From Minisyncoccota bacterium (GTDB lineage Bacteria > Patescibacteriota > Minisyncoccia > Phycocordibacterales > DAORIS01): a DNA stretch of 64,000 bases. The translations under genes were made by a program, and so were the position numbers. Where the stretch lies: NCBI GenBank assembly GCA_035438625.1, contig DAORIS010000004.1, positions 7,497 through 71,496 on the forward strand. Reading direction: 5' to 3'. Every line of letters begins with the position of its first letter. The stretch's first letter is position 1. The notes below the pieces were generated by a model that searched no databases, was not told where the DNA came from, and saw nothing but the letters and a program-made list of their open reading frames with translations. Below are positions 7,259-8,880 of this stretch, one piece after another.

Positions 7259-7386
7259 GTGTACATTCTGCGTTAGCAGCTTATAAATCGACCGATAAGG
7301 CGAGGGTCAAGTGAGTTCTGCCTCGAGAGGTCTTCTTGCTTTACAGCACGCCTCTTTTCTTTGGCCTTACAGAAAGTACTCTACAA

Positions 7387-7731
7387 CTATTTAGCAATAT
7401 TTTCAAGTTGTTTCAGTATTACCTCAAACCAGCCTGTCCGATTACCTGAAAACAAGGAGAGAATAGAGGTGAGCCCCAGTTTCTGCTCATTCTTGTTTAA
7501 GAATTCAGTAACATGTATAACTTTTTCAATTATTTTCTTGTCAGTCGAACTTCCATATTTTTTAATACTGCTGTCGATTATTTTCCCTGCTACACTTTTT
7601 AATTCCCTGTTAATTTTCATATTGAAAACCAATTGATGGCAAAGAAACAACATCACCCGTCTCATTTTTTCCAGATTCTGTAATAGTTGAAAGTAGAGAT
7701 CTATAATTATTATGTCCTGTGTCATATCCAA
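7387..7731 (-). CDS. Hypothetical small protein (114 aa) in an AT-rich islet; uncertain.
   Basis: - The ORF overlaps the 3' end of the SpvB-domain ORF by about 120 nt in a different frame.
- No recognisable motif.
- It may be genuine or a by-product of a degraded region. Confidence 0.3.
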   Translation of the reverse strand: MDMTQDIIIIDLYFQLLQNLEKMRRVMLFLCHQLVFNMKINRELKSVAGKIIDSSIKKYGSSTDKKIIEKVIHVTEFLNKNEQKLGLTSILSLFSGNRTGWFEVILKQLENIAK

Positions 7732-8788
7732 TATCGTATCTTTTCACCCAGTCATTATTAACTTTTACATCTACCCTACTGATACGCTGGGTAGTAGTAG
7801 CAGAAAAACCAGTTTCATAAGAATTAATTACATCTGTTCTATTTTCTAATAAAAATTCAATTTTAAAAATCCCCTCATTGCTACTATTTCCACCATAAGT
7901 AACACGCTCAGGATAAATTTGCCCTTGATCCTTAAAATAGCTGTATCCAATATAATCCCCACGAGTATTTACGATTTTTTCTAAATACCAACTATAAATT
8001 CGATTTGCATCTGCAGGATCATCTTTTCTTGCTCCAGTTGAGCTTCCAAAAATTAATTTGGTACCATCTTTTTCAGTTATGATCCATGTGTTATTTTCAA
8101 ATTCATACTTACGGAAAGCACCGTTTTCTATCCTTGGGATATATACGTTTGAATTTTCACTTCTAACAAGCTCGCCATCTACAGATGAAATAAAAGTATC
8201 CTTCTGATATAGCGTATTAACCCCATACTTATTCAAACGTGAGATTGTAGGAATAGAGATATTCCATCCATAGCCAGCAATATTTGCATTTTTTGTTTCA
8301 TTACTATCATACCGAAACTCAATTGATGGAGAGAGACCATTTCTTCCTGATGGAATTACTAAAGAATAATTATATTGCAGAGAACCTGTTTGAGTATCTA
8401 CTATCGGTGCCGCACTTCGAACATTTTCGTTATTGATAAATAAAGTACCTGCTAAAGTGTCTGAAAATATTGATTCTGGTTCAGTATCATCATCTGGTAA
8501 CTCTTCCATGTCTTCTCGTCGCTCAATCGGCACCTCCTTCATTTCCACAATTGGTTGATTGCCATTTATTGCAGGTCTTGTAATTTCGTCTGGGTTAAAG
8601 AATGTTGGATTTTTAATATTATTTTCAGTTGTTTCGGTTATGTCAGTTTCAGAATTATCTAAATTTAATGGAGTTATTTCTTGCGCAAAGGTAGATAAAG
8701 AAACCGGCAATTGAATAGCTATTAAAATTATAACTCCGAACAATTTCTTAAAATTTAAATGCTTAGAAAAACTAGAAAAGAGATTCAA
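7610..8788 (-). CDS. Secreted SpvB/TcB N-terminal domain protein: truncated Tc-toxin/RHS-family fragment, possible pseudogene.
   Basis: - N-terminal signal peptide (KKLFGVIILIAIQLPVSLSTFAQ).
- The segment GSLQYNYSLVIPSGRNGLSPSIEFRYDSNETKNANIAGYGWNISIPTISRLNKYG matches the Salmonella-virulence-plasmid SpvB / insecticidal TcB N-terminal domain pattern (G.G..LS...Y.S....G.GW.L.IP.I.R..).
- It is followed by W.L..I...G..I.Y.Y-type repeats typical of the region just after that domain.
- The protein stops at 392 aa, whereas family members exceed 1500 aa.
- Local GC is about 33-35% versus about 44% in the flanks. Confidence 0.6.
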   Translation of the reverse strand: MNLFSSFSKHLNFKKLFGVIILIAIQLPVSLSTFAQEITPLNLDNSETDITETTENNIKNPTFFNPDEITRPAINGNQPIVEMKEVPIERREDMEELPDDDTEPESIFSDTLAGTLFINNENVRSAAPIVDTQTGSLQYNYSLVIPSGRNGLSPSIEFRYDSNETKNANIAGYGWNISIPTISRLNKYGVNTLYQKDTFISSVDGELVRSENSNVYIPRIENGAFRKYEFENNTWIITEKDGTKLIFGSSTGARKDDPADANRIYSWYLEKIVNTRGDYIGYSYFKDQGQIYPERVTYGGNSSNEGIFKIEFLLENRTDVINSYETGFSATTTQRISRVDVKVNNDWVKRYDIGYDTGHNNYRSLLSTITESGKNETGDVVSLPSIGFQYEN

Positions 8789-8880
8789 GTTAGTAGGAAT
8801 TATTAATAAAGAGGAAGACCAGAAAAAATATCTGCAGTAAGACTAGCACAAGACTTTAGCTATGCAATTTTTACTACCAA

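Follow-up and report, generated by a model that had tools for sequence, protein, structure and literature searches.

In a 64,000-nucleotide (nt) stretch of DNA from a Minisyncoccota bacterium (contig DAORIS010000004.1, positions 7,497 to 71,496; hereafter the window), we analysed an AT-rich islet that adjoins rplJ, the gene for ribosomal protein L10. The islet holds a minus-strand open reading frame (ORF) of 392 codons. Its product begins with a putative signal peptide, continues with a disordered acidic stretch of about 90 residues and ends with the SpvB/TcB N-terminal domain, which is complete. A C-terminal toxin domain is absent: the ORF closes one residue past the SpvB domain. Comparison of its sequence with those of its relatives supports that this ORF is a truncated member of a family of full-length signal-SpvB-FG-GAP-RHS toxins. 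With a probability of roughly 0.6, we read the islet as what a deletion has left of a toxin locus of the TcdB/TcaC type that was acquired laterally, a remnant incapable of toxin delivery.

Domain content of the 392-codon ORF

The ORF (7610..8788) begins with a TTG start codon and ends with a TAA stop at 7610-7612. An earlier note on this DNA, made by a model from the letters alone, had proposed here a 392-residue SpvB-domain protein with a signal peptide, and we found both of the motifs that it quoted in the translation. A search with the Pfam model SpvB (PF03534) matched residues 133-290 with 76.9 bits (cut-off 22; E = 2.1e-21), so that the outcome which the note had named as speaking against its proposal, the lack of a hit with this hidden Markov model, did not occur. 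The edge of the domain on its C-terminal side is formed by the conserved LPxxxFxYE motif, at residue 391 of the query.

To the profile match we can add a structural model. An AlphaFold2 model of the 392-residue protein, built on 46 sequences, showed a helix spanning residues 13-25, a disordered stretch that reaches residue 127, and an all-beta domain at residues 128-390 with predicted local distance difference test (pLDDT) values above 90. In a Foldseek search this protein matched YenB (E = 1.9e-15), TcdB2 (E = 3.4e-15) and the isolated N-domain of Salmonella SpvB (6P0X, E = 1.5e-13), and the matches on YenB and TcdB2 fall in the N-terminal parts of these proteins. The template modelling score was 0.60 when normalised on the target and about 0.58 when normalised on the query against Tc B subunits (residues 128-390). 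Furthermore, 33 of the 34 columns that are invariant in 21 relatives are kept by the window ORF, a degree of conservation equal to that of the relatives among themselves.

The earlier note had also described first YD-like repeats behind the domain. The stretch in question (RIYSWYLEKIVNTRGDYIGYSY, residues 263-284) is present; since it lies inside the SpvB match and Pfam gave no RHS_repeat match in the ORF at E<=1, it does not represent separate RHS repeats. No FG-GAP match was found in the ORF by Pfam either.

Read from the sequence, the putative signal peptide consists of an n-region ending in KK and a hydrophobic core, LFGVIILIAIQLPVSL, followed by STFA/QE. The relatives also carry a signal peptide, an acidic linker and, just before the domain, a GTLFINNE..S.AP motif, and the motif GTLFINNENVRSAAP at the end of the linker is common to the relatives P0005, P0006 and P0007. 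Ahead of the ORF, a TAATAAT box lies about 12 nt from the TTG start; no consensus promoter call was obtained in this 5' flank (8789..8882), where the box may nevertheless mark a promoter. In this genome, -10 boxes often lie a short way ahead of the start codon. In the window as a whole, a Shine-Dalgarno-like motif accompanies only 9 of 49 ORFs, and many ORFs have a TATAAT or TAGAAT-like box that ends 6-12 nt ahead of the ATG, a pattern that suggests leaderless or very short-leader mRNAs.

Homology ends at the domain boundary

The relatives do not end where the window ORF ends. Among 144 relatives that align to the end of the query, 101 run on for more than 1000 residues, and the median continuation beyond FxYE is 1650 residues. 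In the window, homology stops at the FxYE motif (residue 391), one codon short of the TAA. In tblastn, the alignments of nearly all of about 150 relatives end at 7613-7619, and a handful extend a few codons more in frame. A profile of the region downstream of FxYE (160 residues, 128 relatives) gave no match past the FQYE motif in the six frames of 7200-7700. Against the whole 64-kb window, these relatives matched only 7613-8788 by tblastn, with chance-level matches elsewhere, and with about 100 full-length relatives the rest of the 64 kb gave no match at E<0.01. Propeller and RHS homology is therefore absent both near rplJ and in the window, which supports the truncation that the earlier note had proposed. 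The note had left room for a remainder lying elsewhere; for these 64 kb, this can be rejected.

We also considered whether the gene might be rescued by a frameshift correction or by read-through. A second in-frame stop lies 16 codons beyond the TAA, and the profile found no continuation in 7200-7700, be it in other frames or on the opposite strand, so this possibility was rejected. The space is small as well: 350 nt separate the SpvB stop from rplJ, and about 128 nt of these are the native rplJ leader. The full gene cannot be restored by correcting a sequencing frameshift, because propeller or RHS homology occurs in no downstream frame and nowhere else in the 64 kb. The outcome that the note had set against its own proposal, a remainder recovered in frame after error correction, was thus not found, either in frame or frameshifted. 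UGA recoding occurs in some Candidate Phyla Radiation lineages; it is irrelevant to the end of this ORF, because the stop is TAA.

Composition and insertion site of the islet

The drop in GC content that had been noticed at the islet was confirmed. GC of the 392-codon ORF is 0.328, compared with 0.427 (standard deviation (s.d.) 0.018) in the 47 other ORFs of the window, and GC at third codon positions (GC3) is 0.206, compared with 0.350 (s.d. 0.048); these are deviations of -5.5 s.d. and -3 s.d., respectively. Windowed GC is 0.26-0.37 across about 7390-8880 and 0.42-0.48 on either side. This finer profile retains the AT-rich stretch and corrects its left edge, which the earlier note had placed at 7290, a position that takes in about 100 nt of the native rplJ leader.

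Both edges of the insert, which is about 1.5 kb long, adjoin native sequence (Table 1). On one side, the terminator of the PG-binding gene (8883..8906) is the last native sequence ahead of the insert. On the other, the rplJ leader starts at about 7385, directly past the stop of a small ORF, orf77, and forms the right boundary; it contains the motif TAAGGCCAAAGAAAAGAGG ... CCTCTCGAGGC ... CGGTCGATTT and a promoter-like site, the -10-like TAGAGT at 7378-7383. The insert thus lies between the terminator of the neighbouring gene and the rplJ leader with its -10 box.

A search with L10 returned 345 relatives, from Patescibacteria only. The gene order ftsK - orf239 - PG-binding - rplJ - rplL - orf237 was conserved among the 80 genome loci that we checked. 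We searched 160 related rplJ loci, drawn from genomes and metagenomes and totalling 1.36 Mb, by tblastn and with profiles; not one of them holds an SpvB domain or a homologue of orf77. The presence of the insert in this conserved neighbourhood is lineage-specific. A close relative with an empty site was not obtained: the best L10 identity was 63% in genomes and 59% in metagenomes, and a metagenome scan with the 643-residue neighbour returned nothing. For this reason, only the conserved gene order can be used for an empty-site comparison. We found no flanking direct or inverted repeats, no tRNA and no integrase at the islet. A contig from an independent assembly, Ga0119868_1000094 of Joint Genome Institute (JGI) sample 3300014059, is 100% identical across window positions 1-18788. 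The deviating GC and GC3 and the absence from the 160 related loci support horizontal acquisition of the islet, as the earlier note had suggested from composition.

The surroundings of the insert showed two further features. The space between ftsK/orf239 and rplJ holds at least one large acidic PG_binding_1 protein in the window (8958-10889) and in loci L044, L058, L068 and L020, with varying number and length, and looks like a variable surface-protein slot. The rplJ leader recurs in Paceibacterota (L002, L003, L085 and ten more rplJ loci) with GGCC...AGACnnnAGG / CCTnn...GGC helices and a CGGCC/GGTCG hairpin; compensatory changes were seen in 8 of the 15 predicted pairs of its consensus fold. 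The leader reached no Rfam threshold, that of the L10 leader family included, and on the islet Rfam gave only sub-threshold, terminator-like matches.

Table 1. Features of the islet and of its borders in the window.
Feature	Position	Strand	Evidence and details
Gene of a 643-amino-acid secreted protein with PG_binding_1, native upstream neighbour	8958..10889	-	Pfam PF01471, E = 2.5e-10; GC 0.452
Intrinsic terminator of the PG-binding gene	8883..8906	-	Inverted repeat; stem CCACTCC / GGGGTGG, loop GAAA, T-run
AT-rich 5' flank of the SpvB ORF	8789..8882	-	GC 0.26-0.36; holds the left islet boundary
Putative signal peptide, Sec-type, codons 1-35	8684..8788	-	Read from sequence; model helix 13-25; equivalent N-termini in relatives
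Acidic low-complexity disordered linker, codons 36-127	8408..8683	-	pLDDT <60; family motif GTLFINNENVRSAAP at its end
SpvB/TcB N-terminal beta-sheet domain, complete, codons 128-391	7616..8407	-	Pfam, model, Foldseek
Breakpoint, codon 392 (Asn) and TAA	7610..7615	-	End of homology to relatives
orf77, 77-codon orphan ORF	7387..7620	-	AT-rich, within the islet; 11-nt overlap, at its ATG, with the end of the SpvB ORF (ATGAAAATTAA)
Native rplJ 5' leader, conserved structured RNA	7259..7386	-	Alignment of relatives, consensus fold, GC 0.47
rplJ (ribosomal protein L10), native downstream neighbour, followed by rplL	6767..7258	-	Pfam Ribosomal_L10 on the identical JGI contig

Relatives and decayed copies

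An exhaustive phmmer search returned 7151 relatives, where a word-indexed search had yielded almost none. The best 150 of these 7151 are mostly 2000-3200 amino acids long, and the top matches are 35-50% identical to the window protein. Full relatives are typically polymorphic toxins in which a signal peptide and an SpvB domain precede an FG-GAP propeller and RHS region; P0005, P0007 and P0008 consist of SpvB, FG-GAP propeller, RHS_repeat and variable C-terminal regions. The closest relatives with named hosts come mostly from Patescibacteria (Komeilibacteria, Kaiserbacteria, Doudnabacteria and Falkowbacteria). The earlier note had considered such a fragment unusual in a tiny-genome bacterium. 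This view was not sustained: the family is not exotic, its named members being mostly from Patescibacteria, and decayed copies are frequent. A literature search returned no paper that deals with toxins of the SpvB type from the Candidate Phyla Radiation. An attempt to identify a donor failed: the closest relative, P0006, is 50% identical and resides in a genome of 62% GC.

A natural family of SpvB-only proteins of about 400 residues was not found. The short matches that could be checked were contig-end partials, frameshift products and interrupted genes; they included a 'partial' record on a 2.6-kb contig, another on a 1.3-kb contig and a 347-residue entry clustered with a 3103-residue member, and further short relatives carry tails typical of frameshifts. 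Among more than 250 relatives inspected, there was no complete gene that ends at this domain boundary.

Several copies are decayed in recognizable ways. In L083 the gene is split by a frameshift and continues in another frame. In L166 (1006-4205), the SpvB domain runs straight into the final ~300 residues of the RHS region, an internal deletion having removed residues 388-1902. The break lies directly after the residue equivalent to FxYE; this is the same boundary as in the window and may point to recurrent breakage at this site or to a linker of low conservation. In L164 (5000-7652) and L165 (JGI samples 3300085757 and 3300085543), P0006 breaks off inside the FG-GAP propeller. Its 3' end is overlapped by a phage-type integrase gene in the opposite orientation, beyond which lie small phage-like ORFs; an integrative element appears to have inserted into this toxin gene. 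Decay of these giant genes through integrases, internal deletions and frameshifts is common, and the window is the most reduced case that we saw.

The 77-codon ORF downstream of the SpvB ORF

The only homologue of orf77 among 5.8 billion protein clusters was an identical copy. No family in Pfam, NCBIfam or PADLOC matched it, and it has no similarity to the ORF downstream of P0009. Its length was reached in 133 of 5000 shuffles, which is weakly significant, and its GC by codon position is atypical, with 0.36 at first positions (GC1) compared with about 0.55 in host genes. A single-sequence model was helical, at low confidence (pLDDT 56).

The position of orf77 matches that of the small ORFs downstream of the full-length relatives P0004, P0009 and P0005. 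In P0004 a Barstar-family gene lies 7 nt downstream (L169 12397-12735); Barstar is a classical immunity protein. A 127-residue orphan ORF overlaps the stop of P0009 and is followed by a Y1 (IS200-type) transposase (L167 11776-12960), and P0005 has small orphan ORFs downstream. We regard orf77 as a candidate orphaned immunity gene, or else as a chance or remnant ORF; the one argument for the former is its position.

Comparison with known systems

Polymorphic toxins of the TcdB/TcaC type consist of a signal peptide, SpvB, an integrin-like propeller, RHS and a C-terminal toxin, with an immunity gene downstream (Zhang et al. 2012, PMC3482391). The window shares with them the signal peptide, the acidic linker, an SpvB domain that is 35-50% identical to members mostly from Patescibacteria, and a small ORF directly downstream, as in P0004 (Barstar), P0009 and P0005. 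Unlike them, the window gene is without the parts that define delivery and toxicity, namely the propeller, the RHS shell, the autoproteolytic core and the toxin domain.

The N-domain of Salmonella SpvB has the same fold (6P0X) and likewise occurs without propeller or RHS shell. It extends over about 330-360 residues, whereas the window protein has about 265 ordered residues, and the two are about 18-20% identical; the NCBIfam SpvB equivalog gave 30.6 bits with the window domain (cut-off 1133). Salmonella SpvB (591 amino acids) is composed of this N-domain, a polyproline linker and a C-terminal ADP-ribosyltransferase, of which the window protein has neither the linker nor the enzymatic domain. 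The best structural matches to residues 128-390 are Tc B subunits (Photorhabdus TcdB2 and Yersinia YenB; 4O9X, 4IGL, 6H6E; E about 1e-15). In contrast to the window protein, TcB has about 1450-1500 residues, no Sec signal, and TcA and TcC as partners. A Pfam scan of the two largest ORFs of the window revealed no TcA or TcC gene, and TcB/RHS homology was found nowhere else in the window. The decayed copies L164, L166 and L083 show an event of the same kind, in that an N-terminal SpvB ORF is likewise cut off from, or without, the rest; part of the remainder still adjoins their SpvB ORF, whereas none is left in the window.

Origin and possible fate of the islet

According to the reading that we favour, the ancestral locus would have consisted of a toxin gene, encoding in turn a signal peptide, the SpvB N-domain, an FG-GAP propeller, an RHS/YD shell and a C-terminal toxin of variable type, and of a small immunity gene behind it. 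Either a deletion or the uptake of an already rearranged fragment would then have taken away everything past the last residue of the SpvB domain. The lost part, comprising propeller, shell and toxin, would amount to at least about 5-8 kb, and what was left over would be the 392-codon 5' part joined to about 230 nt of unrelated AT-rich DNA, with the 77-codon ORF at the position of an immunity gene. If the ORF is expressed, Sec would export a product that would fold as the SpvB-N beta-sheet domain alone. Such a product would not be a toxin-delivery device, because it has no cargo, no cocoon and no propeller for receptor binding or docking. We infer a full-length ancestor, a deletion in preference to a partial uptake, and a product with no function; orf77 would be the former immunity gene.

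Several observations weigh against a remnant of this kind. The ORF is intact across 1.18 kb of 33%-GC, stop-rich DNA and keeps 33 of 34 invariant columns, so it shows no sign of decay. Its end lies no more than one residue from the boundary of a structural domain, where a random break in a 2400-residue gene would rarely fall. Streamlined genomes, moreover, tend to shed dead DNA fast. The SpvB N-domain is known to be stable alone (PDB 6P0X). No relative more than 50% identical was found in the databases, so that neither the ancestor nor the donor is visible, and our inspection of the genome covered 64 kb. The intact ORF, its boundary-precise end and the streamlined genome would fit a recent event equally well as a retained function.

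A retained function is the core of one alternative, which we hold to be unlikely. Here the islet would encode a functional stand-alone secreted SpvB-N protein, maybe with a translationally coupled 77-residue product, that was kept under selection after the truncation and might serve, for example, as a surface or adhesion module, as a secretion-promoting module or as a decoy against incoming related toxins. The intact ORF with its 33 of 34 invariant residues, the end exactly at the domain boundary, the signal peptide that is still present and the streamlined genome are what such a protein would lead one to expect, although three conserved residues are changed in the D-x-N-x-N turn and the TTG start is found in a genome that seemingly uses short or leaderless 5' ends. 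The ORF overlaps orf77 by 11 nt, an arrangement that resembles translational coupling; the orf77 product, however, has no homologue and a GC1 of 0.36, against about 0.55 in host genes. The SpvB N-domain crystallises alone (6P0X), and residues 1-229 of Salmonella SpvB are, in the work as cited in PMC3789776, enough to promote secretion. Against these precedents stands the lack of a second example, as none of the more than 250 relatives inspected was a complete gene with this end. More doubtful still, in our estimate, is that the 392-residue protein is a domesticated, Sec-exported SpvB-N module of the surface of an ultra-small episymbiont, where it might, for instance, help in attachment or, as a decoy or shield, ward off the RHS toxins of Patescibacteria nearby, possibly together with the 77-residue orphan. 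If this were true, it would be the first case of an SpvB-N domain that acts independently of any toxin cargo.

Two further explanations appear to us very improbable. By analogy with the separate TcB and TcC, the toxin might be split, with SpvB-N encoded here, a propeller-RHS-toxin gene elsewhere in the genome, and assembly after export. Tc toxins are indeed naturally divided among polypeptides (TcB and TcC in 4IGL and 4O9X), and the 64 kb that are visible belong to a genome of likely 0.5-1.2 Mb. However, homology was found for neither propeller nor RHS in these 64 kb, TcB structures show the SpvB-like part running on into the shell, and SpvB-N and propeller form one polypeptide in every relative examined, separate ORFs having arisen only through frameshift or deletion within the locus. 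A metagenome assembly artefact, in which a chimeric join or collapse skipped the rest of the gene or a lower-GC fragment was spliced in, would account for the abrupt change in composition; giant repeat-rich RHS genes are hard to assemble, and many database relatives are fragments. The JGI contig, with 100% identity to the window over 18.8 kb, nevertheless shows the same junctions, and the orf77 product is also found on an 81-kb NCBI contig of a Candidatus Paceibacterota metagenome-assembled genome, though both may stem from the same reads. The breakpoints share no repeat. Native sequence flanks the insert on both sides and is syntenic, with order and orientation as expected, so a chimera would need two precise joins.

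As a deletion remnant, the islet would document the acquisition and then the loss of a toxin locus in a conserved housekeeping neighbourhood of a streamlined Paceibacterota genome, which alone is of little consequence. Giant signal-SpvB-propeller-RHS toxins with immunity-like downstream genes are common in Patescibacteria and often decaying. If it proves to be expressed and conserved, the fragment would offer a naturally minimal construct with which to study the role of the isolated SpvB N-domain.

Other features of the window

The 23S rRNA gene (61-4053, minus strand) is 3993 nt long, compared with 2925 nt for the model, and contains at least one group I intron (1080-1359, 67.9 bits). No tRNA gene was found in the whole 64-kb window. 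A minus-strand ORF of 1545 codons at 57687-62324 has no Pfam match and no RHS or SpvB similarity; its GC at second codon positions is high (0.49), and it may encode a large surface protein. The isoleucyl-tRNA synthetase of 1173 amino acids (25248-28769, minus strand) carries a His_Phos_1 domain (E = 1.5e-33) at residues 513-677. The inserted domain separates the class I catalytic core into two halves, which is unusual in an aminoacyl-tRNA synthetase.

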